Part shown: positions 2,880 to 47,488 of the stretch, one piece after another
How the letters are laid out: every line of letters begins with the position of its first letter
Position numbering within the stretch: position 1 is the stretch's first letter
Origin: Alphaproteobacteria bacterium
GTDB lineage: Bacteria; Pseudomonadota; Alphaproteobacteria; Rs-D84
Reading direction: 5' to 3'
NCBI GenBank assembly: GCA_017528045.1
Contig: JAFXPG010000005.1
Location: 77,834-141,833, forward strand
Length of the DNA: 64,000 nucleotides
Position numbers and translations under genes: made by a program
The notes under the pieces: model-generated
What the model was told of the DNA's origin: nothing
Databases searched by the model: none
What the model saw: the letters and a program-made list of their open reading frames with translations, nothing else

Positions 2880-3140
2880 ATGAATTTCTTAGATAAATTG
2901 GGTAAAGTATTAATGAAGAATATCGGATACACAATCACATTGATTGTTGCTTTGGTTTTTTTCTTGTATTTTACAGAAGGTGATTTAATTGCTGGTATTT
3001 TCACAGCTGTTTGTGCTTTGGTTATATATGCTTGTATCATGTTGTTGTATAAAGAATACAAAAATATGTCTGCACCAAAAACAATAGCCAAGAAAGTTAT
3101 TGTAAAAAAAGCATCAGCAAAAAAATCTAAAAAGAAATAA
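2880..3140 (+). CDS. Small membrane protein with a lysine-rich tail
   Basis: GGGAG RBS, two hydrophobic helices, and the C-terminal tail KKVIVKKASAKKSKKK. I recognise no family. Confidence 0.6.
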   Translation: MNFLDKLGKVLMKNIGYTITLIVALVFFLYFTEGDLIAGIFTAVCALVIYACIMLLYKEYKNMSAPKTIAKKVIVKKASAKKSKKK

Positions 3141-23416: not shown

Positions 23417-23983
23417 ATGAGAAACAAAAAATCGATAAGTTTAGAACAACCAATAGTAATGGTTGGTTTGATGGGGGCGGGTAAGACAAGCATTGGTCGT
23501 GCTTTGGCTAAAAATCTGGGAATACCATTCGTAGATTCTGATAAAGAAATTGAAAAAGCAGCAGGGTGCAGTGTTGTTGATATTTTTTCTTTGTATGGCG
23601 AAAAAGAATTCAGACGCGTAGAAGAAAAGGTTATAGAACGATTGTTGGATACGCCACCTTTGATAAAAGTAATTTCTACTGGCGAAGGTGCTTTTATAAC
23701 ACCGGCAGTACGTGAAATGGTTTTAAAGCGTGCCACATCTATTTGGCTGAAAGCAGATTTGGAATTATTGGTAAAAAGGACAAATTTTCGTCATACAAGA
23801 CCTCAATTATTAAATACAGATTCTCGTCAGATTTTGGCACAATTAATAAAAGAACGTTATGATACATATGCTTTGGCAAATATAATGGTTGAAACCAAAG
23901 ATGAAAATATTCATAAAACGTTAAATAAAGTTTTAAACGCAATAGAAGAACATAACAAAAAAGGTGAAAAAAATGAAAATTAA
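23417..23983 (+). CDS. aroK: Shikimate kinase
   Basis: It carries the Walker A motif GLMGAGKTSIGR and the motifs DSD and GEKEFR. I moved the start to the ATG at 23417. Confidence 0.9.
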   Translation: MRNKKSISLEQPIVMVGLMGAGKTSIGRALAKNLGIPFVDSDKEIEKAAGCSVVDIFSLYGEKEFRRVEEKVIERLLDTPPLIKVISTGEGAFITPAVREMVLKRATSIWLKADLELLVKRTNFRHTRPQLLNTDSRQILAQLIKERYDTYALANIMVETKDENIHKTLNKVLNAIEEHNKKGEKNEN

Positions 23984-24530
23984 ATTTATTAACGAATTTA
24001 AATCTTTTATTAACAAAGGCAGCGCAATCGATATGGCTGTTGGTATTATCGTTGGGTCTGTCATGACCAGTGTCGTTAATTCTTTGGTTAAAGATATTAT
24101 TATGCCACCGGTTGGAATGTTGGTTGGTGGAATTGATTTTTCTCAATGGTTTTTTGTCTTGGGTGGCGGTGAACCTGGTGCACATTATGCAACAATGGAA
24201 GCTGCAACTGCAGCTGGGGCAACAACATTAAATTTAGGAACATTTTTAAATACGGTTATCAGTTTCTTGATAACAATGTTTGCTGTATTTATTATTGTAA
24301 AAATCGCAAATTCAGCACGAGCCAAAGGACCAGCTACAACACATACATGTCCTTATTGTCAACAATCTATCAGTAAATTAGCAACAAAATGTCCATATTG
24401 TTGTTCTGCTGTAAAACCAGAAAAAATTGGTCCTGCAGAAGAAGCAGAATTAACAAAAGGTTTAAAATCTTTGAAAGAAAAAGTTGGTAAAGTTGCCAAA
24501 GTTGCTAAAAAAGTAGCTAAAATCAAATAA
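23973..24530 (+). CDS. mscL: Large-conductance mechanosensitive channel MscL with a C-terminal zinc-ribbon extension
   Basis: The core reads EFKSFINKGSAIDMAVGIIVG...DIIMPPVG. The extra C-terminus contains CPYC-x11-CPYC and a K-rich tail. The start is the ATG at 23973. Confidence 0.9.
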   Translation: MKIKFINEFKSFINKGSAIDMAVGIIVGSVMTSVVNSLVKDIIMPPVGMLVGGIDFSQWFFVLGGGEPGAHYATMEAATAAGATTLNLGTFLNTVISFLITMFAVFIIVKIANSARAKGPATTHTCPYCQQSISKLATKCPYCCSAVKPEKIGPAEEAELTKGLKSLKEKVGKVAKVAKKVAKIK

Positions 24531-26707: not shown

Positions 26708-27484
26708 TTATTCGTTGATTATTGGGCCGTCGATAAATTGACCGGTTCCTTGGTTGTAATAAAACTTTCCTTCCACTTTGTCATACATACATGGAACACC
26801 GTCATGATCAAGAACAGGGATAAAATCACGAACAAGAACGTCGTCTTGCCAGATTTGGAAGTAGTAGATTTTTATATTTGATGGCCAAAGTGGTACAGCG
26901 TTTTCATTGCATCTTGCACCCAGATAAATAGGATACGTGTTTTGATTTGTGTTATACGTTCCAATATTTATTTGTTTGCTGGTATTATTATCTGAGAGTG
27001 TAAAAACACCGTTATACAATTGTGCCGTATACAGAACACCTATTGATGCGCTTTTATCCCAATATACAGTTTCGTTTACGCCAGACCCAAATCCTGTCCA
27101 ACCAGGGTTATAAAAAAGTCCAAATCTTGGTATTGTACTCGTGTTCATATAGCCCCAAATACCGTTAATCTCGTTGCTAATTATATTTGAAAAAATAAAA
27201 GATATATTTATGCGTAAGTTTTTGGTTGTTAAAGGGATGAAATTTGTATTTATAAAAGCTCCCCCGGTACTTTCCAAATATTCAATTGGAATATACTGTG
27301 CAATTCGCCATCCACGAAAAGTGTAACCTGTTTTTGTTGGTGTGGTTGGTAAAATTAAATCGTTTCCCATTTCGCACTGGGTTGTTGCGTATGTGCTATC
27401 ACCAACTTTCCAATATATATTCACATTGTCAGCATACGTAACAGTGCATAACAATATTAACAACAATACTATAAATTTTTTCAT
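26708..27484 (-). CDS. Secreted protein with one Listeria-Bacteroides (Flg_new) repeat and an unknown C-terminal beta-rich domain
   Basis: It has a signal peptide, the Flg_new hallmark PTKTGYTFRGW, and the C-terminal motif RDFIPVLDHDGVPCMYDKVEGKFYYNQGTGQF. An AGGGGG RBS precedes it. Confidence 0.7.
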   Translation of the reverse strand: MKKFIVLLLILLCTVTYADNVNIYWKVGDSTYATTQCEMGNDLILPTTPTKTGYTFRGWRIAQYIPIEYLESTGGAFINTNFIPLTTKNLRINISFIFSNIISNEINGIWGYMNTSTIPRFGLFYNPGWTGFGSGVNETVYWDKSASIGVLYTAQLYNGVFTLSDNNTSKQINIGTYNTNQNTYPIYLGARCNENAVPLWPSNIKIYYFQIWQDDVLVRDFIPVLDHDGVPCMYDKVEGKFYYNQGTGQFIDGPIINE

Positions 27485-27695
27485 GTTTTGCCCCCTGCTT
27501 TGCTAATAATAAAATTTAACCGCCACAAAACACTGGGCGGTTGGAGGTTCAGAACAATTTAGCTTAAATTGTGCGTTTATTTATATATATCACGACCCTC
27601 CAACCATTTTGTTCAGTTGGAGATTTTTAACGTCTTTACAGACGAAGCTAAACGGGTTCTGACACCCCATCAACAAAACTCTTGCTGACAATATG
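27485..27695 (-). promoter_or_regulatory. Structured 5' leader (candidate attenuator or riboswitch) of the 27484 operon
   Basis: All segments below are given in plus coordinates. A long-range helix pairs 27645-27662 with 27549-27565. A GNRA hairpin lies at 27631-27644. Segment 27597-27605 can pair either with 27616-27622 or with 27539-47, and the latter overlaps the terminator hairpin at 27518-27542. Confidence 0.45.
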
Positions 27696-27725
27696 ATTCT
27701 AATAAATTTTTAATTGTCTGTGCAA
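27696..27725 (-). promoter_or_regulatory. Candidate promoter for the leader
   Basis: On the minus strand: TTGCAC (27725..27720), an 18-nt spacer, then TAGAAT (27701..27696). Confidence 0.3.
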
Positions 27726-27768
27726 GTATAATTTGATAAAATATTGATATGAAAATAAAGGGGAAGAT

Positions 27769-28467
27769 ATGCCTAAGAAAACTGTGAAAAAAACTGTGAA
27801 ATCAAATAATGAAATTTATTTTGATAACGAAAATTTAAAATTGATATTAATTTGTTTCTTGTTTGGTGTTTTTGGCGTTCATAAATTTATGCAAGGCAAA
27901 AAAGGTCAAGGTATTTGCTTTATTTTACTAGATTTAACCGTATTTGGTATATTGGTATCTTTTATTTGGGCTTTTTGTAATTTAATTTCTTTTACTTTCC
28001 AAAAAAACAACAAAATCGGAAATATGATTGTCGGAACTGTTTGTTTGTGTGGTGGTTTGTTCGGTTGGCCAACATATTTTGATAATGCAAAAACTGTAAT
28101 TATCAAAGAATCTGTTACAACAATGAATGAAAACGTTTCTTTTGAAGAAAATTTGTTATGTGAATTAAGAAGATATGATATTCCTAATTTGTCTTATTTT
28201 GTGTATGTAAAAGCTAATTCTGATGCTGCGGATATAATTATCGGAGATTCTGACAGAAAGATAAAATTACCTGTTAAAATTTATGGTGAAAAATTAAAAG
28301 TATATGAAGGTTTTATGGATTGGTCAGTGCCTGATATAAAAATAACAGACTCTTCTAATCCAATGGATAAAATCACTTTAAGAATCCAAGGATCAGATAT
28401 AAAAATATCCGGAAAATTAGAAAGTGATACAGATTTTAATACTTATTATTGTACAATAATAAAATAA
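27769..28467 (+). CDS. TM2-domain membrane protein with an unknown C-terminal domain
   Basis: FGVFGVHKFMQGKKGQGICFILL is a TM2-domain motif. A GGGGAAG RBS precedes the gene. Confidence 0.7.
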   Translation: MPKKTVKKTVKSNNEIYFDNENLKLILICFLFGVFGVHKFMQGKKGQGICFILLDLTVFGILVSFIWAFCNLISFTFQKNNKIGNMIVGTVCLCGGLFGWPTYFDNAKTVIIKESVTTMNENVSFEENLLCELRRYDIPNLSYFVYVKANSDAADIIIGDSDRKIKLPVKIYGEKLKVYEGFMDWSVPDIKITDSSNPMDKITLRIQGSDIKISGKLESDTDFNTYYCTIIK

Positions 28468-34307: not shown

Positions 34308-36842
34308 CTAATTTGTATCACTGTTTGAATTATTAATTGATACTTTATGATGTGGCACTTTTTCTGTTAGTGTTTTGGAATAATCATTTTTATCTGTTGT
34401 TTTAAAATTGCAAGTTATAGTCAAAGTGTTTTCATCAGTTGTGCTATCAACAGTTGGACAAACTTGACCATAAGATGAAAATACTATTTGTTTACACCAT
34501 GAATTAGGCTCTCTTCTGACTGTTAAATATTTTGTTTTAAAGAAATCTGAAAAACGATTATTGCAAGTTGGGTCGTCTCCTGAAGTATTTTCTGTTGATG
34601 AATATACACGTAATAAAGGTGCACATATTTGTTCAGAACCATTTTTACTGCGATATCCACCATTTTCCCAACAAGAACAAATGCCCCAAGATTGAATATC
34701 TACTTTTAAATTATAATTTGCAGGACACATATATTCATTATCTATAAATTGATACCAATAATTTAATGATGTTGGTTGGCTGTAATCTATATAAAATAAA
34801 CTGGCAGGAGATTTTGTGTTTATTGTACATAAATTATCAGAATTATATCCATATTGTTTTGCGTTTGTATATTCAACAAAAAAACCTTTTAATGTATCGC
34901 ACTGTGCAGATAATATGTTTATAATATTATAATAAATTTCTGTTGCGACACCAGATGGTCTTATTATTCTGTCTTCGTTTTCTTCTGTTGAATATTTGTT
35001 ATCAGCTGTTTTATCAAAACCACCAAACACTTTTTCTAACATATCTGATGTGTTGCATCCTTCTGTTGCAAAAACTTCTTTTGCACAAGGGGATACGATA
35101 TTTTGATTATCGTCATATAATGTAAACCAATCTAAAGCATAACCAGATTTAAATAAGCCACTGGATGGATTGTAAAGATTTTCATAACTTGTTCCGCCAA
35201 ATTTATCAAAACACTGTTTTGCAATTGCTCGACAAGCTGTTTCAGAATCTGTATAATCTTTATTAGCCAAATATTTTTGTATAACATTATCACCAAATAA
35301 ATTATTACATGATTCTATATAATCAGAACACATAGTTGTTGTTAAAGATATAGATGCAGGTTGTAATAGTATGCTGGAATCACCAGTTAAATTAGCTATT
35401 GCATTGTTAACAGATGTTTTTTGGTTTTCATAACACGCAGCAACTAAAGAAAAACAGCTGTCTTGAATTTCTTTTACTTTCTCTTGTTGAGCAATATATA
35501 TATCCAATAATGCCCTGTCCAAATATTGTTGCCATACAGTATCTGATTGTTCGCTGCATTTATCCAATGCATCTTTTGCAAATTTTTTTGTTTTGTTTTC
35601 AAAGAAATTGATGAAATCTCGATTATTAGATATTTTTGACAGTTTTAAATCTTTGATATTATCGGTATTTTTAAATGTTAACAGAGTTCCCAATTTATAA
35701 AAATCTGAAATACCTGTCAAAGGTGCACCGGTTGTTACGTCTATAAATTGACCATAATCAAGGCATTTGTGATATCTGGCTCCACATACTTCTTCACTTT
35801 GAATTGCTTGTTCTACGTTTACTAAACAAGTTGCTATATCATCAGAATTGCGATTTTGTCTGTTTTCTACTCTGGCTAAATCTAACATTGCACTACTTTG
35901 ATGTGTTGCGCCTTTTAATGTTTTTTGTTGTGTTTTTAAAGCGGTTTCGACAGTATTGCAATCTTGTTCAATTGCCATTAAATACGCATTGACAGCACGT
36001 TGTAAAGATGCATTATTACAATCTTCTGAAACAGCATTACGACATTTTGGATAAATTGCTTTGTATAAAGTAGATCCGTTGTAAGATGCGATAATTTGAC
36101 CAGAATCATCCATTCCAAATGAATTAGATAAATCCGTACCAATTGACACACTGTTTAAACTTTCGTATTTACCACCAACAGATGATTTTTCGCCATTTAT
36201 AGCATTCATAATTGCTTGTAACAATTGTTTAGAAGCCGATTTGTCTTCTGTTAAGGCATTTTCGCCTTCTGATGCTGTTTTCATGGCGTTTGCTTGTTCT
36301 TTTGTCATTCCAACGACATCTAAATCTTCGGAAAATTCTGTTAAACGTTCACTGACTTTTTGATATTTATCAGAAATTTCTTGATAGTTATAAATTTTGT
36401 CACTGCAAGAACAACGTCTGAATTTATCATTTTTTAATGTGCAAAATTGATCCATACATGTAAAAAATGCGGTTTTACATTGTTCATATATTTCGCCTGT
36501 TTTTGTTTCAACAGAAGATTCTTTTTGTTCTGTTGCACGCGCTATAACATTGTTTTTGTTTACAGTACGATTATTTACAGCGGTTCTTGTTGCAATATTT
36601 CTGGTGTTTATAGTTCTTGATACAGGAGAATCTTTTTTTGTTAATATTGTTGTTGGTTTTGCACTGCGTGCAGACACCGTTGTTTTTACAGCGTTTCTTG
36701 ATACAGTAGAACGAGATGTTTTGTTTGTGGTTTTTATTGGCGTGTTTTTATTGCGAATCACAGTGTTTTCGCCACGTACAGCAGCCCCTGCTTCAGAAAA
36801 GCAAAGTATAAATGACAAAACAAAAATCAGAATTTTCTTCAT
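34308..36842 (-). CDS. Large cysteine-rich secreted protein (844 aa, orphan)
   Basis: The signal peptide is MKKILIFVLSFILCFSEAGA. A basic T/R/N/K-rich low-complexity N-terminal region follows, and then a long region with many paired cysteines (for example CKTAFFTCMDQFCTLKNDKFRRCSCS). I recognise no family. Confidence 0.75.
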   Translation of the reverse strand: MKKILIFVLSFILCFSEAGAAVRGENTVIRNKNTPIKTTNKTSRSTVSRNAVKTTVSARSAKPTTILTKKDSPVSRTINTRNIATRTAVNNRTVNKNNVIARATEQKESSVETKTGEIYEQCKTAFFTCMDQFCTLKNDKFRRCSCSDKIYNYQEISDKYQKVSERLTEFSEDLDVVGMTKEQANAMKTASEGENALTEDKSASKQLLQAIMNAINGEKSSVGGKYESLNSVSIGTDLSNSFGMDDSGQIIASYNGSTLYKAIYPKCRNAVSEDCNNASLQRAVNAYLMAIEQDCNTVETALKTQQKTLKGATHQSSAMLDLARVENRQNRNSDDIATCLVNVEQAIQSEEVCGARYHKCLDYGQFIDVTTGAPLTGISDFYKLGTLLTFKNTDNIKDLKLSKISNNRDFINFFENKTKKFAKDALDKCSEQSDTVWQQYLDRALLDIYIAQQEKVKEIQDSCFSLVAACYENQKTSVNNAIANLTGDSSILLQPASISLTTTMCSDYIESCNNLFGDNVIQKYLANKDYTDSETACRAIAKQCFDKFGGTSYENLYNPSSGLFKSGYALDWFTLYDDNQNIVSPCAKEVFATEGCNTSDMLEKVFGGFDKTADNKYSTEENEDRIIRPSGVATEIYYNIINILSAQCDTLKGFFVEYTNAKQYGYNSDNLCTINTKSPASLFYIDYSQPTSLNYWYQFIDNEYMCPANYNLKVDIQSWGICSCWENGGYRSKNGSEQICAPLLRVYSSTENTSGDDPTCNNRFSDFFKTKYLTVRREPNSWCKQIVFSSYGQVCPTVDSTTDENTLTITCNFKTTDKNDYSKTLTEKVPHHKVSINNSNSDTN

Positions 36843-40866: not shown

Positions 40867-41181
40867 TTATCTTAATCCTTTCTTTTTGCAACAAGCGCTG
40901 GCTGCAGATTTCCAATCTGAATAAGTATTTGCGGGATCCCTTAAATCACGCCATGGTTGCCAAGAATTACAATTGTTTTTATCTTTATTAGAACATTTTA
41001 CATATCTGCGCAAAGAACATGTTTCAGATGAGTTTTTACCAGTATCGGTTGTACATTTTACAATAACATTTTGATTTTTTGCATCATCCTTGCCAAATTC
41101 TTTGGTTGAAAGAACTTGATAAGCATCAGCGTTTAATACAACAGAAAAAACAGCCATTAAAATAAAAAATATTTTTTTCAT
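40867..41181 (-). CDS. Small cysteine-rich secreted protein (104 aa)
   Basis: It has the signal peptide MKKIFFILMAVFSVVLNADA and 8 cysteines in the mature part. It is the last gene of the minus-strand cluster. Confidence 0.65.
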   Translation of the reverse strand: MKKIFFILMAVFSVVLNADAYQVLSTKEFGKDDAKNQNVIVKCTTDTGKNSSETCSLRRYVKCSNKDKNNCNSWQPWRDLRDPANTYSDWKSAASACCKKKGLR

Positions 41182-41242
41182 CTTATTCCCCTGCTTTTAT
41201 ATACATATTATAAACAATTTTTCGTATCAATACAACAAGGTT

Positions 41243-43444
41243 TTATTCAGCTGCTGTTTGTTTCTGAGATGTGGAATTTGTATTTTGTTTCGCACCAGGT
41301 TCAGGACGTTTTTGAAATAATGTTTTTGGGTTTTGTTCTTTCAAACTTTCTTGTTGTTGTTCCCATTCTGTGATATTTGTATGTACTTGATTAAATTGTT
41401 CTGATGTTGACCAAGGAATATCGTTCATTATCAAATAAAATAAATCACCTTTTGTTTTATTTGGATCTGATTCATCCAAACGAATAATAGGACGAACAAT
41501 ATATATATCAACATTGCATTCTGCACCGTTTTTTGATTGAAATTCGTTTAAAGAATCTGAAAATTTTTCTGTAAAGTCTATAACTTGCAAATAAGCTGCA
41601 TCGTCATCTTGTGGTAAAGTTGAATTCCCTGTCCATCTTAAAAAAGTACCATAGCCTACTTCGTTATCTTCACCTTCTATATCATCGGCAGATAATAAAC
41701 AGAAAGGTTTAAATGCTATACCATTTGAATATTTTTCAGATGTTGTTGATGTTTGATCATAAAAATCCCCCAAAACATATAAAAATCCGGTCAAAGCGCC
41801 CATGTTTTGTTCAAATTTTACTAATTTTTCTCCAAACTTTAAAGATGTATGGAATAACCAATCTTTTGCTTTTGCAGAAAAAGTTCCCATACCTGCCCTT
41901 GCTACTTTGCTGGCTTTTGCAATTTTTGCAGCATTTTTTGCAGAATTAATAGCTTTATATGTTTTGTATGCTGCACCAATTTTTTTGAAAGGACGTGTTA
42001 TAACGTTTCCTGTTTGTGGACGCCCAAAAGCTTTCAGATCATCAAGATATTTAAGCATACTTTTAAGTTCACCTGCATTTTCAGTATATTGTTGAAGACC
42101 TTTCAATTCTTCTAATTCTTTTTCATATTTTTGGACATATGCTGCTTTATCAGCTTTTTTAGCTTCTTTTAACAACTTTTCTTTTTCTTTTATTTGTTTT
42201 GCAACATCATCCAACATACCAGAAGTTTGTTTTTCTAAAGTTGCAGCTTCTTTGCGTAGATTATTTATGGTCTTTTCCATATGGGATGGATCTGACATAT
42301 ATCTTCTGTCCAATTTAGGATCTATTTTTTTCGCTTCTGCAAATATATCATCTAATTTTTTCTGAAGTTCTTGTGATTTTACTAAATCTTTATTCTTTTT
42401 CGCTGTTTTATATTCTTTTGCGACTTTTTCATAATCTTTTGCACGGTCAAGATTTTTTGCAAGACGGTCTGCTTTTGAAGTTGTTTTTGCTAATTTATCA
42501 GCAATCTTTGCGTACTTTTTTACATTAGCAAACTTTTCCAAAGCCTTCATATTTTTTATCAGGTTTTTCATTGTTTTGACGGCTCGAATACTGCGAATAC
42601 TGCTTGTAACAGCCTGACTGCCACCCAAAGTTGCGACAGTTAAAACAGCATCCAAAGTTATCTCTGCCCACATAACCCATCTAAGATCAATATCTCCTGC
42701 AACGTAATAATCGTTTGAATCCTCTTCCAGGTCAACAACTTCACGAACAACTTGGTTTATTGTATCTTTATCATTAGCCCAAGCGCTTCTGCTGGTACAC
42801 CAATAACCTTTTGGATAAACTTTGTCGATATTGTCATTTATCCATTTCACTGAAACAATATTATTTTTATCTTTACCAACAAAATCGTTCAAAGAACCAT
42901 GTTGAACAACCATAACCGCATACCAAGCAGGATCTGTATTAATATATTTAGCGGGATCATTTGGATCCATTAATTTTGGACTGGCATCATCTGTAGGTAA
43001 ACTTGGTTTTTCAGCTAATTGTATTTTTTGTTTTATAACTTTTGGTTGTGTTGTATAATTTACTGTTACGGATTGCCCCCATGGAAAAGTATATTTTACC
43101 GGACTGAATATAACAGTATCAGTGTCAGATATGTTTGCAACTTCTGGGCATTTTTGTATTTGCTTTAACACATCTGCATCTAGTATTACTCTTCTGGCCC
43201 ATATTTGCAAAGAATCTTCTTCTATAGTGTCTTCATATTCGTTTTCTTGTATTATTTTTTCTGCACCTTTTTCCAAGGCTTCAATGAATATTTTGCTGGA
43301 ACAATCTGTGGGATGAATATTCTGATGTTTTGTCATCATTTCATCAACAGTTTGATAAGAAGAGTTTTTCACCGGTGCATCAAAATCATCCGCAAAAGCA
43401 GGAAAGATAAATAAAAAAGATATAATAAATAATTTTATAAACAT
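41243..43444 (-). CDS. Secreted/membrane protein (733 aa) with a central K-rich helical region between two hydrophobic segments
   Basis: The signal peptide is MFIKLFIISFLFIFPAFA. The two hydrophobic segments are ITLDAVLTVATLGGSQAV and MGALTGFLYVLGDF. A K/A/E-rich helical stretch of roughly 270 aa lies between them. Confidence 0.7.
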   Translation of the reverse strand: MFIKLFIISFLFIFPAFADDFDAPVKNSSYQTVDEMMTKHQNIHPTDCSSKIFIEALEKGAEKIIQENEYEDTIEEDSLQIWARRVILDADVLKQIQKCPEVANISDTDTVIFSPVKYTFPWGQSVTVNYTTQPKVIKQKIQLAEKPSLPTDDASPKLMDPNDPAKYINTDPAWYAVMVVQHGSLNDFVGKDKNNIVSVKWINDNIDKVYPKGYWCTSRSAWANDKDTINQVVREVVDLEEDSNDYYVAGDIDLRWVMWAEITLDAVLTVATLGGSQAVTSSIRSIRAVKTMKNLIKNMKALEKFANVKKYAKIADKLAKTTSKADRLAKNLDRAKDYEKVAKEYKTAKKNKDLVKSQELQKKLDDIFAEAKKIDPKLDRRYMSDPSHMEKTINNLRKEAATLEKQTSGMLDDVAKQIKEKEKLLKEAKKADKAAYVQKYEKELEELKGLQQYTENAGELKSMLKYLDDLKAFGRPQTGNVITRPFKKIGAAYKTYKAINSAKNAAKIAKASKVARAGMGTFSAKAKDWLFHTSLKFGEKLVKFEQNMGALTGFLYVLGDFYDQTSTTSEKYSNGIAFKPFCLLSADDIEGEDNEVGYGTFLRWTGNSTLPQDDDAAYLQVIDFTEKFSDSLNEFQSKNGAECNVDIYIVRPIIRLDESDPNKTKGDLFYLIMNDIPWSTSEQFNQVHTNITEWEQQQESLKEQNPKTLFQKRPEPGAKQNTNSTSQKQTAAE

Positions 43445-43456
43445 CGTAATACGTAT

Positions 43457-44566
43457 CTATTTTTTATAGTTTATATTTTTTATTGTTTTACCTTCTGATA
43501 TAATAACTAATCCATTTGGTTTATTTGTTTCTGATATTTTTTGAGGTAATGGTGTATATTTTGGCCAGACTCCCCTAAAAATGTCATACCAAAAACCGTG
43601 GTCATTATAATTCCAGAAATATCTTTCTCCTTGTTTTTTGTATGGTATTGCAACTGCGTAAAATACCAAATCTTCACACCAATCATCTTTGTCTAGTTTT
43701 GAAACTGCTTTTACAAATTCCTCAAATTTTTCCAAACCACTAAATTGACTGAATACAACAATAGATTCATCATTATCGGTATCTCTCATTAATAGTAATC
43801 CCGGGAAAAGTCTTGAATCTGAATCTCCAAAATCAAGAAATGTTTTATAAACATTAGCATAAGCTGCTCTTATGTGGTCGAATGCAGCACCTGCAGCATA
43901 ATGAATAACATTTGGATTTTGTATTCCGTTAGTAATTTTATGATCAGAACAATTTGGGTGAAAAAAATTACCAGATTGATGATTATGAGGCAAAAAATCC
44001 CCAGGATTTAAGTCTGGATTTTTTGTTGCTACTATAGCTATATTGTGTGGCATTCTGGAAACAACATCACTGGGTTTAAAATATAGGCTTACTAATTCTT
44101 CATCTATGGCGACCTCCAGTTTTACGCATCTTGGACCACTTGAGTTATTTTTATCACATGGCACACCTTTTTCTTTATTTTGGTCTTCTTCCCATTGTAA
44201 TCCTTCTTGCATTAGTGCATTAAATTCGGTTTCAGAACCACAAAGATCTGTCATAAGTATACCTAATAAATAATAAATCGGAAGTCTGGGGTTTCCATTG
44301 TCATCTGAAATAGTTTCATTGTTCATAACTTTTTGACCTTTAGCATTTGTTTTATACAAAGGTGTTTTTAAATCTCTTAGTTCAGCTAGATATTTTGCTA
44401 AATAACCATCATATTCTGAATTTTCGAATAAGTCTTCTCTTACTTTTGCTCTAGTAGAATTTGAATTCATAGCTTTATCTAAACAGGTCTGCCATGCAGA
44501 ATTTGATGCCTCTGCGTTGATACAAAAACATAATATTGAAATAATAAATATTAATTTTTTCATCAA
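43457..44566 (-). CDS. Secreted protein (369 aa), paralog of the 44603 gene
   Basis: It has a signal peptide. It shares blocks with its neighbour, for example NFFHPNCSDH vs HFFSDGCSDW and RLFPGLLLMRDTDNDESIVVFSQF vs RAFPGLVLMDKTWSTTESIVAFQNF. Confidence 0.7.
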   Translation of the reverse strand: MMKKLIFIISILCFCINAEASNSAWQTCLDKAMNSNSTRAKVREDLFENSEYDGYLAKYLAELRDLKTPLYKTNAKGQKVMNNETISDDNGNPRLPIYYLLGILMTDLCGSETEFNALMQEGLQWEEDQNKEKGVPCDKNNSSGPRCVKLEVAIDEELVSLYFKPSDVVSRMPHNIAIVATKNPDLNPGDFLPHNHQSGNFFHPNCSDHKITNGIQNPNVIHYAAGAAFDHIRAAYANVYKTFLDFGDSDSRLFPGLLLMRDTDNDESIVVFSQFSGLEKFEEFVKAVSKLDKDDWCEDLVFYAVAIPYKKQGERYFWNYNDHGFWYDIFRGVWPKYTPLPQKISETNKPNGLVIISEGKTIKNINYKK

Positions 44567-44602
44567 AGCCCCTTATGTTTCGTTTGCTGTCTTGAAAATC
44601 TC

Positions 44603-45673
44603 TTAGTCTATTTTGTATGGATTAGATACAATCATAACTTGATCTATTTTTTCTATATCTCGTGGTATCAAAGCAGCAATACCTGCTCCTGTTAATAATA
44701 CACCAGAAGCAATCCATCCCCAAACCGGAACAACTGCAGTCCCTGCTGCTAAACCAGCTAATGTTCCAGAAATTGTGCCTGCTGCAACAAGAGACACGTA
44801 TGTAGTATAAACTAAACCTGCACCTGCTGTACTTAATAATCCAACTGCCCATCCACTGGTTCCATTGTCAAATCTGGTTTTTTTTACGTCCAAAGCCACT
44901 AAATAGGCAGCTAATTCATCATCAGAACAGGCAGAATTTTGTAAATTTTTTGCAAAAGTGTCTATACTGCTTTCTGCTAATTCAAAATTTTGAAAAGCAA
45001 CAATAGATTCTGTTGTGGACCATGTTTTATCCATTAACACCAAACCAGGAAAAGCACGCATGTTATCTTTTACTGCAAAATCAAGAAAAAATTCATTTGA
45101 AGATCCACTATGTCTAGCATCTATAAAGGCTGCCTGTCCAGCTCTATTTACAGCAGCACTATCTTTTAAATTATCCCATATAGACCAATCAGAACATCCA
45201 TCGCTGAAAAAATGTCCGTCCTGTGGGACACTTGTTTTTTCCAGTATTCTGCCTGGTTGAAGATTTCTATTGTTTATAACCAATATACCTGTTCTTATAT
45301 GGGACATATATTTCAACACTTTATGTAAAGGAAAATTAACATGAAATTCTTCATCACCAAGAGATAATTCTATTCTGGATGAATTCGGCATTTCCAGAAT
45401 TTCTGCAATTTGACCAGGACATAAAGCTTCTATATTTAAAGCTATTAATGAAAACAACTCTTCTTTATGTTTGATTACGTGCTCTGGTAACAATACAGTG
45501 TTTTTAGCATCTAATTCTTTAAAAATACGATCGTCATTGTTTATATTAAATAATTTGTTGTGCCAATTTTCTTTGTCTGCTTGAATTATATTTAAACAGT
45601 CCTGTAACGAACCCAACGCAAATGCATTGTAACCTGAAAAAATAACAACAAACAAAAATAATAGTTGTTTCAT
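44603..45673 (-). CDS. Secreted protein (356 aa), paralog of the 43457 gene, with a C-terminal glycine-zipper membrane region
   Basis: It has a signal peptide. The C-terminus GWAVGLLSTAGAGLVYTTYVSLVAAGTISGTLAGLAAGTAVVPVWGWIASGVLLTGAGIAALI is absent from the paralog. Confidence 0.7.
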   Translation of the reverse strand: MKQLLFLFVVIFSGYNAFALGSLQDCLNIIQADKENWHNKLFNINNDDRIFKELDAKNTVLLPEHVIKHKEELFSLIALNIEALCPGQIAEILEMPNSSRIELSLGDEEFHVNFPLHKVLKYMSHIRTGILVINNRNLQPGRILEKTSVPQDGHFFSDGCSDWSIWDNLKDSAAVNRAGQAAFIDARHSGSSNEFFLDFAVKDNMRAFPGLVLMDKTWSTTESIVAFQNFELAESSIDTFAKNLQNSACSDDELAAYLVALDVKKTRFDNGTSGWAVGLLSTAGAGLVYTTYVSLVAAGTISGTLAGLAAGTAVVPVWGWIASGVLLTGAGIAALIPRDIEKIDQVMIVSNPYKID

Positions 45674-45685
45674 GTTTTTTCCTTT

Positions 45686-47488
45686 TTATATTGACATATT
45701 TACCGAACAACTTAATGTTAATGTTATATTTCCGTTATAAACAGAAACGTTCAAAGGCGATGATACAGGATTTCCTGATTCTTGCCATGAACATTTATAA
45801 CTATCACAAGCTGCAGTACTAGTAGAGGGGTTTTTTGTCTTCGTTATATCATCATTTGTTGGCAAATTTACAGATCGTGTACTTGAATCAAAACTTGTTA
45901 TTTTGTTAAAACTAGATTTTATCTCACATTTACAGCCTTGTGGACAACCATTGGCATTATCTGTCTTATATGTAATAGTATAATTAGTTCCGCCGCTGCC
46001 ACCGCCACCTTGTTGTGTGTTTTTCCATTTTGCTTTTAATGTTTTATCACCGGTTGTGCCCGCAGGAATTTTTGTTATACAATTGTTGCCTTCCTGCCAG
46101 CAATCAAAATCTTTGTTTGGACAATTACTTGCATCTTTTAATTGTGTGTCAGCATCTGTCGTATAAGATGTAGGACTGTCATGTGTAGCACCAGAACAAT
46201 TTACATCATATGTTATTTTATATCCGTTTTTACGCCATTTTGCATAAAACTTTTTATCCCCTGTGTCTGTTTTGGTTATTTCTTTGACTAAATCACCGCC
46301 ACCATTTGCCGCTGTGTACCAGCCTTCAAATGCATGTAATGGTCGGGTAATTTTTCCATTTGTTGTTTCTGTTGGTAATTTAACATTTGTTGCAGTATTG
46401 ATTTTATAACTGTAAGGCACTTGTGTTGGGTCTTGAAACCTTGCATCAGATCCAATATCATATTCTATCTTGAAATCTTTGCAATTCCATTTTGCAAACA
46501 GTTTTAAATTTTTATTCATACCTTTTTCAATGGTTTCTATTTTGTTTGTATATTCTTTTTCTGTAAACCAACCCATGAATACATCTGAATTTGCATCTTT
46601 CTTTTCACAATTTTCAAATGTTGGATCTTCTAATTTTATAGGTGTTTGTCTTGGTTTATATATCAAAGGGTTGTTTGGATTGTTAACACCACCGTCTAAA
46701 TGATACGTTATAGTATATTTTTTGCAAATATCTGATCCAGAATGATCTTCACACCATTCGTCTTCGTCTTTAAATTGCGGTAAATCGTATGCGTGTTTAT
46801 CTTTGAATGGTTTATAGCCTTCTGTTTCATTGGCAACACGTTCTTGGAAACTGATGTCTTTATAAGTCTTAGGAAATGCTGTGCTTGATAAATGTTCAGT
46901 ACCAACGCTATTTTGTTCTTGTAATTCTTTTAATTCTTGTGCGCGTTCTGCGATTTCTTGTTTCCATTTAGGTGTATCTGCTTTAAAAGGATTTTTTTCA
47001 AAAACCATGTTTGTATTATCGTTGTATTGTGCAGGTTCTGTAGCCTGAGGAAATGCAACGACTCTGTTTTGTGGAATTGTGTTTCTATATTTTGTAACAT
47101 AAGAATCATATAAATAATCTATATATCCCGAACACGCATACAAATAATTATGTCCGGGCAAATTAGATAACTGAATTAAAATCACAGGCTTAATATCTTT
47201 TAAAGATGTACTTTTACAATTGTTTCTGGCCGAACATTGAACGTTAATTAAAGAATTAACAATGTTTTCACATTCACCCGCGTTTAAATCTGCACCTTGG
47301 ACATAAACAGGTTGTGGTAACCGTTGATTATAAGGAGAATTTGGTGTCCAAAAAGGGTTAGAAGAATATTTTTGAACATTTTGTATTTGACCATAATCAG
47401 AAAAAATAGCAGATGCAGCCATCGCGCTGACCATATAAATACAGCTGAAAACAGCGGTTGATAAAGATATTAGGTGTTTTTTTCTCAT
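45686..47488 (-). CDS. Secreted protein (600 aa) with four Listeria-Bacteroides (Flg_new) repeats
   Basis: It has a signal peptide. Repeats start with YTITYHLDGG, FKIEYD, YKITYD and YTITYKTD. Repeats end with FMGWF...LFAKW, FEGWY...FYAKW and FDCWQ...LKAKW. A GGGGSGG linker is also present. Confidence 0.75.
   Translation of the reverse strand: MRKKHLISLSTAVFSCIYMVSAMAASAIFSDYGQIQNVQKYSSNPFWTPNSPYNQRLPQPVYVQGADLNAGECENIVNSLINVQCSARNNCKSTSLKDIKPVILIQLSNLPGHNYLYACSGYIDYLYDSYVTKYRNTIPQNRVVAFPQATEPAQYNDNTNMVFEKNPFKADTPKWKQEIAERAQELKELQEQNSVGTEHLSSTAFPKTYKDISFQERVANETEGYKPFKDKHAYDLPQFKDEDEWCEDHSGSDICKKYTITYHLDGGVNNPNNPLIYKPRQTPIKLEDPTFENCEKKDANSDVFMGWFTEKEYTNKIETIEKGMNKNLKLFAKWNCKDFKIEYDIGSDARFQDPTQVPYSYKINTATNVKLPTETTNGKITRPLHAFEGWYTAANGGGDLVKEITKTDTGDKKFYAKWRKNGYKITYDVNCSGATHDSPTSYTTDADTQLKDASNCPNKDFDCWQEGNNCITKIPAGTTGDKTLKAKWKNTQQGGGGSGGTNYTITYKTDNANGCPQGCKCEIKSSFNKITSFDSSTRSVNLPTNDDITKTKNPSTSTAACDSYKCSWQESGNPVSSPLNVSVYNGNITLTLSCSVNMSI

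Follow-up and report, generated by a model that had tools for sequence, protein, structure and literature searches.

Introduction

The described RNAs closest to the element studied here are leaders in which an antiterminator competes with an intrinsic terminator. In SAM-I (S-box, RF00162), the P1 helix that closes a four-way junction serves as anti-antiterminator, and the antiterminator and intrinsic terminator follow directly. SAM-I is found in several copies per genome, and its terminated fold is usually the most stable one. T-box leaders are long and multi-stemmed, use an antiterminator/terminator pair, occur in many copies per genome, and terminate by default until a trans-acting molecule relieves termination. 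The cyclic di-GMP-I (c-di-GMP-I, GEMM-I) riboswitches reach dozens of copies per genome in some species, where they often precede genes for secreted proteins, adhesins and surface structures. In this study, we analyzed a 64,000-nt stretch of DNA (hereafter, the window) from an Alphaproteobacteria bacterium of the order Rs-D84 (assembly GCA_017528045.1, contig JAFXPG010000005.1, positions 77,834 to 141,833), and focused on a structured 5' leader within positions 27485-27725. The leader is read on the minus strand, upstream of a gene for a 258-aa protein with a signal peptide, and all coordinates are given as plus-strand numbers of the window. It shares the SAM-I traits listed above, the multi-stem antiterminator/terminator arrangement, high copy number and predicted default termination of T-boxes, and the regulon-like distribution of c-di-GMP-I. 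Our analysis suggests, with a probability of roughly 0.8, that this leader is a conditional transcription attenuator and a member of a 5' leader family that has not been described. An initial annotation, made from the letters of the window, had seen here a transcription attenuator or a riboswitch expression platform; the terminator/antiterminator leader proved well supported, and "riboswitch" is kept as a tentative label.

Results

Structure of the leader

We folded the minus strand of 27485-27725 (241 nt) and compared it with 200 dinucleotide shuffles. The results showed a minimum free energy of -70.5 kcal/mol, compared with -49.1 ± 4.6 kcal/mol for the shuffles (z = -4.65), and none of the 200 shuffled sequences was as stable. 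The plus strand gave z = -4.06 in the same test. G-U pairs in the window and across the family indicate that the RNA strand is the minus strand, which is also the gene strand.

The long-range helix of the initial annotation was recovered, with both of its segments on the minus strand. P1a pairs UCAGAAC (27662-27656) with GUUCUGA (27555-27549), P1b pairs UUUAGCUU (27652-27645) with AAGCUAAA (27565-27558), and together, split by an internal loop CCG/UU, they form P1 (27549-27662), the closing helix of a four-way junction. Inside the junction, P2 (27631-27644) consists of CGUCU, the loop GUAA and AGACG; the previously noted 5-bp hairpin is thus present, and its GUAA loop is not a conserved feature because it varies in relatives. 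P3 (27597-27623) pairs segment 1, UCUCCAACU (27623-27615), with segment 2, GGUUGGAGG (27605-27597), and includes the pairing of CUCCAAC (27622-27616) with the GUUGGAG inside segment 2 that had been proposed before. P3 is the rival of the antiterminator described below. P4 (27571-27596) pairs 27596-27592 with 27576-27571 and has an AU-rich loop. Upstream of the junction, the minimum-free-energy fold contains a 5'-terminal hairpin, P0 (27669-27689; 27689-27682 with 27676-27669, loop GAGUU), followed by a 5' G-run, GGGG (27665-27668). In this fold the G-run pairs with CCUC of segment 3 (27547-27544) and thereby lengthens P1; it can instead pair with CCC (27656-27654) in a local hairpin, H_alt1. 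P0, P4, the G-run and two alternative local hairpins are additions to the initial annotation. The hairpin AACCGCC/GGCGGUU (27542-27518), with its end 33 nt upstream of the ATG (27484), had correctly been called terminator-like. We assigned a putative intrinsic terminator to 27503-27542, in which AACCGCC (27542-27536) pairs with GGCGGUU (27524-27518) and is followed by the tail AAAUUUUAUUAUU.

The order of elements is therefore P0, G-run, four-way junction (P1 to P4) and, 1 nt after P1a, segment 3 with the terminator. Because the joining strands J1/2 and J3/4 measure about 0 nt, P1b would stack directly on P2, and P3 on P4. J2/3 is A-rich, J4/1 is conserved (CACAAUUU), and the P4 loop has the conserved consensus GAAUA...(G/A)AAUAA, with variable loops on P2 and P3. 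The leader thus shows an aptamer-like trait, namely a conserved, co-varying structure with conserved junction nucleotides.

Homologous leaders and co-variation of the closed fold

Using the intergenic region of the window as the query, nhmmer retrieved 30 further copies, all of them directly upstream of paralogous genes and on the gene strand. BLASTN matches to this region showed 69-82% nucleotide identity, and the adjacent proteins were only 33-43% identical, indicating that the non-coding leader is better conserved than the genes it precedes. A metagenome collection was scanned with a structure-aware pattern built from the three complementary segments, which returned at least 120 stretches. 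The covariance model R1 (160 positions, 43 pairs; its E-values are rough owing to a short calibration) matched 53 leaders in genome loci; in 100 metagenome loci it matched 107, which mostly scored 80-150 bits. The search of other genomes thus yielded at least about 160 homologous leaders, in Candidatus Enterousia / Rs-D84 genomes and on metagenome contigs; copy numbers are lower bounds throughout, and environmental origins were taken from record names. The relatives are Candidatus Enterousia and "RUG" rumen metagenome-assembled genomes (MAGs). Enterousia belongs to the order Rs-D84; most of its genomes, which derive from animal guts, are smaller than 1 Mb, and they are without most biosynthetic pathways (PMC12306168).

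Co-variation was assessed on 103 distinct metagenome sequences in an alignment, A5, fitted to the closed (OFF) model, and the helices were found to co-vary at these homologous loci. Across the OFF fold, 92.1% of cells pair, compared with 74.6% in shuffles. Double changes occur at 33 of the 43 pairs, with 789 doubly changed cells against 212 in shuffles, and the covariation score is 0.46, against at most 0.086 in controls slid by 1-3 columns. When RNAalifold was run freely on A5, it gave the same helices back with 29/34 pairs compensated; run on a plain MAFFT alignment, it supported P0, P1a, P2, P3 and the terminator. Changes on both sides were seen at 7/8 P1a and 9/9 P1b pairs among the 103 relatives, and all four Watson-Crick pair types occur at several P1a/P1b positions. 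P2 and P4 each carry double changes at 5/5 pairs, and the P2 loop varies in both sequence and length. P0 has compensatory changes at 6/9 pairs (RNAalifold), and its stem co-varies in the metagenome set, for example as GUCGGUAAGAGUUUUACCGA and GUCGCCGGGCGUUCCGGCGG. P3 occurs as CUCCUGC/GCAGGAG, as CUCCUAC/GUAGGAG and, in a second subtype (type II), as CCCUGAC/GUCGGGG. The terminator stem switches between CCGCC/GGCGG and CCACC/GGUGG (A5 columns 279-316: AU 41, GC 36, GU 24).

Some family members depart from this architecture. Three-way-junction leaders without P2 were found at L101 4242-4372 (+), L101 8639-8770 (-) and L129 2306-2432 (-), where L numbers denote the loci retrieved; P2 is therefore peripheral and dispensable. 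The two L101 versions precede small helix-turn-helix (HTH_3, XRE-type) genes, one of them Pfam-confirmed, and the L129 copy precedes a gene for a similar small protein. An extra hairpin is inserted between GAAUA and AAAUAA of the P4 loop in L174, L158, L125, L099, L141 and L155, and likewise in L105, L122, L108, L086 and L180. The two conserved strands of the P4 loop are probably an internal-loop motif and not a simple hairpin loop.

An alternative conformer is preserved

The initial annotation had proposed that segment 2 can pair perfectly over 9 bp with a downstream segment, and this was confirmed: GGUUGGAGG (27605-27597) is complementary to segment 3, CCUCCAACC (27547-27539), with 9/9 Watson-Crick pairs, forming a candidate antiterminator (27539-27605). 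It overlaps the 5' arm of the terminator by 4 nt and uses two C of that arm. Practically every member can form this pairing. Among the 53 genome-derived leaders, 93.4% of antiterminator cells pair, with double changes at 5/9 pairs. This set is free of the constraint of the search pattern; segments 2 and 3 are near-invariant in the metagenome set because the pattern fixed them. The mutually exclusive pairings are likewise upheld, since segments 1, 2 and 3 change together in a way that keeps both P3 and the antiterminator pairable. The three segments read CUCCAAC, GGUUGGAGG and CCUCCAACC in type I (the window), CUCCUGC, GGCAGGAGG and CCUCCUGCC in L021, CUUUUAGUC, GGCUGGAAG and CUUCCAGUC in L070, and CCCUGAC, GGUCGGGG and CCCCGACC in type II. 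In L005 the antiterminator is compensated and P3 is not.

Two further local hairpins belong with the antiterminator. H_alt1 (27654-27667) consists of G27667-C27654, G27666-C27655 and G27665-C27656, plus U27664-A27657, and its loop contains the 5' strand of P1a. The corresponding A5 columns 4-19 contain 68 GC, 19 GU and 15 AU pairs and no A-C, with a mutual information of 0.27 bit. H_alt2 (27555-27571) consists of C27571-G27555, A27570-U27556, A27569-U27557, U27568-A27558 and U27567-A27559. Columns 238-259, equivalent to A27570-U27556, contain A-U 65 times, U-A 34 times and C-G once, with a mutual information of 0.99 bit. Both column pairs are reciprocal best mutual-information partners. Both hairpins are incompatible with P1a, and H_alt2 is also incompatible with the bottom of P1b. 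We assigned H_alt2 to the alternative conformer because it shares G27555 with P1a and A27558-27559 with P1b. For the same reason we set aside a reading of H_alt2 as a tertiary pair within the closed junction; it could possibly form a pseudoknot with the upper part of P1b.

In the OFF-fitted alignment, the alternative (ON) structure of H_alt1, antiterminator and H_alt2 pairs in 97.7% of cells, with double changes at 8/17 pairs and a covariation score of 0.143, against at most 0.069 for slid controls. When the antiterminator was forced in the window sequence, RNAfold added H_alt1 and H_alt2 unprompted. In type II, all 18 of 18 leaders contain a G-run/C-run hairpin whose loop is complementary over 6-9 bp to the stretch preceding segment 3, and both the hairpin and the loop duplex persist even though their sequences differ from copy to copy. 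These findings indicate that a toggle between this hairpin and P1a is conserved across both subtypes.

Type II leaders (L008, L009, L012, L013, L019, L023, L027, L031, L035, L039, L045, L048, L050 and L071) are positioned some 200 nt ahead of position 3001 or of the gene; the genes they precede are other paralogues, and both types occur in the same genomes. They have segment 1 CCCUGAC, segment 2 GGUCGGGG(A/G)G, segment 3 CUCCCCGACC and a P0 of their own (CCAAU...AUUGG). Their G-run hairpin is stronger, and extra hairpins and further possible alternative pairings are seen (CGGUGCGAAAGCAUCG / GAUG...CGGUG...CACCG). R1 scores them at only 19-38 bits.

Terminator and folding energies

The initial annotation had cautioned that the U-tract after the terminator hairpin is interrupted. 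This is true of the window copy, with 4 U in the 8 nt after GGCGGUU, and does not apply to the family, in which 87 of 106 metagenome relatives have 5-7 U in these 8 nt. A strict terminator scan missed the window hairpin because of this interruption.

For the transcript 27692-27505, the OFF fold was calculated at -61.9 kcal/mol and the fold with the antiterminator forced at -50.7 kcal/mol; for a transcript ending before the 3' arm of the terminator, the values were -48.5 and -43.8 kcal/mol, respectively. The OFF fold was the most stable one at every transcript length tested. When the transcript was cut at 27556, the best fold consisted of H_alt1 and P1b, suggesting that H_alt1 is at least a folding intermediate. 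In these models, termination is the thermodynamic default, so that read-through would depend on a factor or on P1a closing with a kinetic delay.

Distribution and downstream genes

A same-strand open reading frame (ORF) lies within 250 nt downstream of 132/151 pattern elements among the matches listed. The other 19/151 have none, and roughly half of these are within a few hundred bases of a contig end. The ORFs downstream of the 132 elements comprise 56 of the InlB-B-repeat family and 76 of other families, and an N-terminal hydrophobic segment is present in 109 of 125 distinct downstream proteins (~87%). Among the exceptions are small HTH_3 regulators, a UvrD-type helicase, a GT92/GT2 glycosyltransferase, an EcoRI-type adenine methylase and an APH/choline-kinase-like protein. 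The gene set looks like one of surface and accessory ("contingency-type") functions, not like a metabolic pathway.

The 258-aa protein encoded after the window leader belongs to a large paralogue family, with 348 database matches and 24 loci in the MAG RUG12675. The leader is present at 21 of these 24 loci, on returned contigs that sum to ~0.89 Mb, and 21 is a minimum, since the leader also precedes genes of other families. Members of the protein family (loci L003-L080) have one InlB B-repeat and a C-terminal domain of ~190 aa with the motif PCMYDKV...FYYN.GTGQF, a domain that gave no Pfam or PDB match. The same domain occurs in Bacilli and Lachnospiraceae MAGs (L058-L080), there without the leader.

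Within the window, no second copy was found by BLASTN-short, by repeat search or by R1 with filters off, and no repeats flank the leader. The pattern had no match in a viral contig collection. Additional genes for signal-peptide proteins (104-844 aa) at 34308-36842 and 40867-47488 (-) of the window have no type I leader by R1 with filters off, indicating that the leader would control only part of the secreted proteins in the source genome. The leader was also ruled out as a repetitive extragenic or MITE-like (miniature inverted-repeat transposable element) sequence on account of its gene-strand upstream position, its single copy in the window and the lack of viral matches.

Several loci show rearranged copies. 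L022 (2800-3040) and L006 (2768-3003), both from RUG12675, have an identical central leader part; L022 is without segment 3 and terminator, and L006 has an unrelated 5' part after another terminator-like hairpin. This patchwork indicates either recombination between leader copies or assembly chimeras. In L129 (2306-2740, -), two complete units of promoter, P0, leader and terminator are arranged in tandem with ~75 nt between them. What comes after the first unit is not an ORF but the second unit, and this one stands upstream of a small HTH gene. The tandem could provide double control or include a stand-alone small RNA.

Promoter and genomic context

The divergent position of the intergenic region that houses the leader was as first described; its length is 284 bp, not the 285 bp given initially. 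A promoter scan predicted a sigma-70-type promoter just upstream of the leader (27696-27725, minus strand), with -35 TTGCAC/TGCACA near 27725-27719 and -10 TAGAAT at 27701-27696; the spacing TGCACA-17-TAGAAT spans 27724-27696. From this, transcription is predicted to start at ~27690. An extended -10 (TGnTAnAAT) stands at a constant distance to the leader in 103 metagenome copies and also in the genome copies; P0, too, is conserved at a fixed spacing, and the leader has a constant place between promoter and gene.

A Shine-Dalgarno-like GGGGG (27495-27491, minus strand) lies ahead of the ATG at 27484. The first downstream gene (27484-26708, -) encodes the 258-aa protein, which has a signal peptide and a Listeria-Bacteroides (InlB B) repeat (Pfam Flg_new, E = 4.5e-6). 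Its only PDB profile matches are InlB B-repeats, and beyond this repeat Pfam, NCBIfam and PDB profiles recognized nothing in its fold. The second gene of the unit (26704-25946, -) encodes a Cys-rich secreted protein of 252 aa, and the third (25813-25253, -) a protein of 186 aa. The divergent neighbor of the leader is a TM2-domain gene, with genes for RpiB, bactofilin, an M23 peptidase and MscL close by. The MscL homologue (23964-24530, +) is long (188 aa), with a C-terminal Cys-rich zinc-ribbon-like extension (Pfam Zn_ribbon_3, E = 0.003) and a Lys-rich tail. The same locus, identical, is present on gut-type metagenome contigs.

Searches against known RNA families

The initial annotation could not match the aptamer-like part to any known riboswitch class, and our searches agreed: no Rfam 15 family, SAM-I, T-box, c-di-GMP-I/II, EAR and twister-sister included, reached threshold on the leader. 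At gathering thresholds, only tRNAs passed over the whole window; at E ≤ 10 over 27400-27850, only chance matches appeared; and at E ≤ 0.5, no match fell on the leader in 15 other members. The chance matches to the NsiR4 terminator stem, SNORD42 and SAR11_0636 were dismissed. A resemblance to ZTP/pfl was rejected, as the window sequence GGGUCGUGA is not conserved (family consensus GGGCUGUGAAU) and no Rfam match supports it. Inspection of the alignment also excluded ANTAR and ribonucleic antiterminator (RAT) sites, since neither the length nor the sequence of the P2, P3 and H_alt loops is constant. The Rfam searches of the window region and the 15 members matched no ops-like element and no EAR. 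In the literature on Enterousia, Rs-D84 riboswitches, structured RNAs and the conserved strings, we found no description of this leader RNA.

A 24-codon ORF on the minus strand (27670-27593, MGCQNPFSFVCKDVKNLQLNKMVGGS) has its AUG before the G-run and runs through P1 to P3; it is not conserved. A leader-peptide attenuator of the trp/his/leu type was rejected, as only 55 of 103 relatives have an AUG at 27670, and stops and lengths (6-40 codons) are scattered.

Discussion

In the mechanism that we propose, transcription would start at ~27690 at the conserved promoter, and the nascent RNA would fold P0 and then the P2/P3/P4 junction closed by P1a and P1b. In the OFF state, P1a would be closed, the G-run would clamp the first half of segment 3 (CCUCC), and segment 2 would be kept in P3. 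The candidates for the anti-antiterminator are accordingly P3 (segment 1 with segment 2) and P1 with its G-run clamp. The remainder of segment 3 would build the terminator, and RNA polymerase would halt near 27505-27515, before the gene. In the ON state, P1a would be open, with its 5' strand held in the H_alt1 loop (GGG/CCC) and its 3' end caught by H_alt2 (CAAUU/AAUUG). The freed segment 3 could then take the place of segment 1 and form 9 bp with segment 2, which would remove the base of the terminator and let transcription enter the gene. The co-varying helices, the alternative pairings and the constant position of the leader between promoter and gene are features of the family itself; from these we infer termination, read-through and a signal that would shift the balance between them.

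Several points weigh against this mechanism. The U-tract in the window is weak, and a strict scan misses the terminator there. P1, with 15 bp and an extension of 4 bp, is exceptionally long and stable, and the OFF fold is favored at every transcript length tested, so that a route to the ON state without a factor is hard to see. Because the search pattern fixed segments 2 and 3, the co-variation of the antiterminator rests on the smaller genome set and the type II leaders, and the fit of A5 to the OFF model inflates the pairing percentages, such as the 92.1% of the closed fold, somewhat. The downstream genes have no metabolic theme and give no hint of a ligand.

These same observations bear on what kind of signal might act on the leader. 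With the OFF fold as the default at all transcript lengths, and with two co-varying hairpins (stem conserved, loop variable) that are incompatible with P1a, a protein or other macromolecule could act as an antitermination factor: a lineage-specific RNA-binding factor that stabilizes the open form, by holding H_alt1/H_alt2 or the antiterminator, and turns on the whole gene set, in the manner of the BglG/SacY-RAT, ANTAR or specialized NusG paralogue regulons. The near-symmetric conserved P4 loop, GAAUA...(G/A)AAUAA, and the heterogeneous accessory regulon that would be its target are consistent with such a factor. No candidate factor was identified, although no search for one was made; there is no RAT-like or ANTAR-like consensus, the loops vary and Rfam gives no match, and protein antiterminator sites are typically simpler than a multi-stem junction whose joining strands are conserved. 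Taken on its own, factor-dependent antitermination is possible and falls short of even odds. The other candidate is an OFF-type riboswitch, in which a small molecule or ion binds the junction and locks P1a and P3, leading to termination, and in which, without ligand, the local hairpins delay closure of P1a until the antiterminator forms. In the aptamer-like junction, P1 is the closing helix and J1/2 and J3/4 measure nearly 0 nt; J2/3, J4/1 and the P4 loop are conserved and the P2/P3 loops are variable and dispensable; the expression platform begins 1 nt past P1a; copies per genome are numerous, as with c-di-GMP-I or T-box; and co-varying alternative pairings are typical of riboswitches. However, P1 (at least 15 bp) greatly exceeds the usual switching helices in stability and would seem to close without the help of a ligand, the gene set indicates no metabolite, and the host genomes are under 1 Mb with little metabolism (PMC12306168). 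Judged from the sequences, a riboswitch of this kind is likewise possible, at slightly lower odds. Of the two kinds of trigger, we thus slightly favor the trans-acting factor, which would keep P1a open, rather than the small molecule, which would lock the junction shut.

Readings without a sensed signal fare worse. The energetic dominance of the OFF fold, a P0 of the mRNA-stabilizing kind and the L129 unit of promoter, leader and terminator with no ORF after it would fit a constitutive module, in which a leaky terminator sets a low and stable level of expression or the ~180-nt terminated RNA is itself a multi-copy small RNA. A fixed attenuator would have no need of the antiterminator and the two other OFF-incompatible pairings that selection keeps, and a second promoter would not fit into the ~10-60 nt that lie between terminator and start codon in most copies; we regard this module as improbable. 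Least probable by far is a DNA-level element, such as a recombination, phase-variation or mobile cassette, whose RNA fold would be incidental. Its place upstream of a large, fast-evolving paralogue family and the chimeric or partial look of L022 and L006 would agree with such an element, but the compensatory changes obey RNA rules, strand-specific G-U pairs included, orientation and distance to the gene are constant, many unrelated gene families are preceded by the leader, and the window has no second copy or flanking repeats and the viral contigs no match.

Beyond conditional attenuation at a single locus, the evidence tips, by a modest measure, towards a new class of signal-sensing leader, be it an orphan riboswitch or the RNA partner in a new antitermination system. 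At 21 or more copies in ~0.9 Mb, it would be among the densest RNA regulons known. In a gut symbiont with a reduced genome, one cue would then switch not only most of the secreted and surface proteome but also genes for restriction-modification, a glycosyltransferase and small regulators. If this is true, one RNA design governs dozens of surface-protein genes per genome of under 1 Mb, and the leader offers a testable handle on gene regulation in the uncultured, host-associated and little-known order Rs-D84. The trigger, once found, would reveal the cue, from the gut or from a partner cell, that these bacteria sense. With more than 150 examples in two subtypes, both switch conformers are visible in the co-variation record, which is rare. 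The family can serve as a good model of co-transcriptional folding and as a candidate in the search for a ligand or protein. It is also a candidate new Rfam entry and a candidate metagenome marker for a "surfaceome" regulon.

Compared with the systems named at the outset, the leader differs from SAM-I in that the covariance model gives no match at E = 10 and other nucleotides are conserved. Its antiterminator takes the 3' strand of P3 and not of P1, its P1 is about twice as long, and it precedes surface and accessory genes instead of genes of sulfur metabolism. c-di-GMP-I has two stems with a tetraloop-receptor contact in place of a four-way junction, and gives no Rfam match here. Unlike T-box RNAs, the leader has no Stem I/specifier, no T-box sequence and no Rfam match, and its genes are not aminoacyl-tRNA synthetase or amino-acid genes. 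The BglG/SacY-LicT RAT, ANTAR, PyrR and TRAP systems resemble it in having a default terminator and an alternative structure that overlaps the terminator's 5' arm; their sites consist of repeats or of no more than two small hairpins, with loops that are sequence-specific, whereas the putative sensor region of the leader is a ~115-nt junction and the loops of its alternative hairpins are variable. RfaH-ops/JUMPstart, UpxY, LoaP and EAR are, like the leader, lineage-specific and common to surface and accessory or horizontally acquired genes, but they act processively on RNA polymerase, and we know of no reliance of theirs on a mutually exclusive antiterminator/terminator pair. These comparisons indicate that the leader is a new RNA family with a known working principle.

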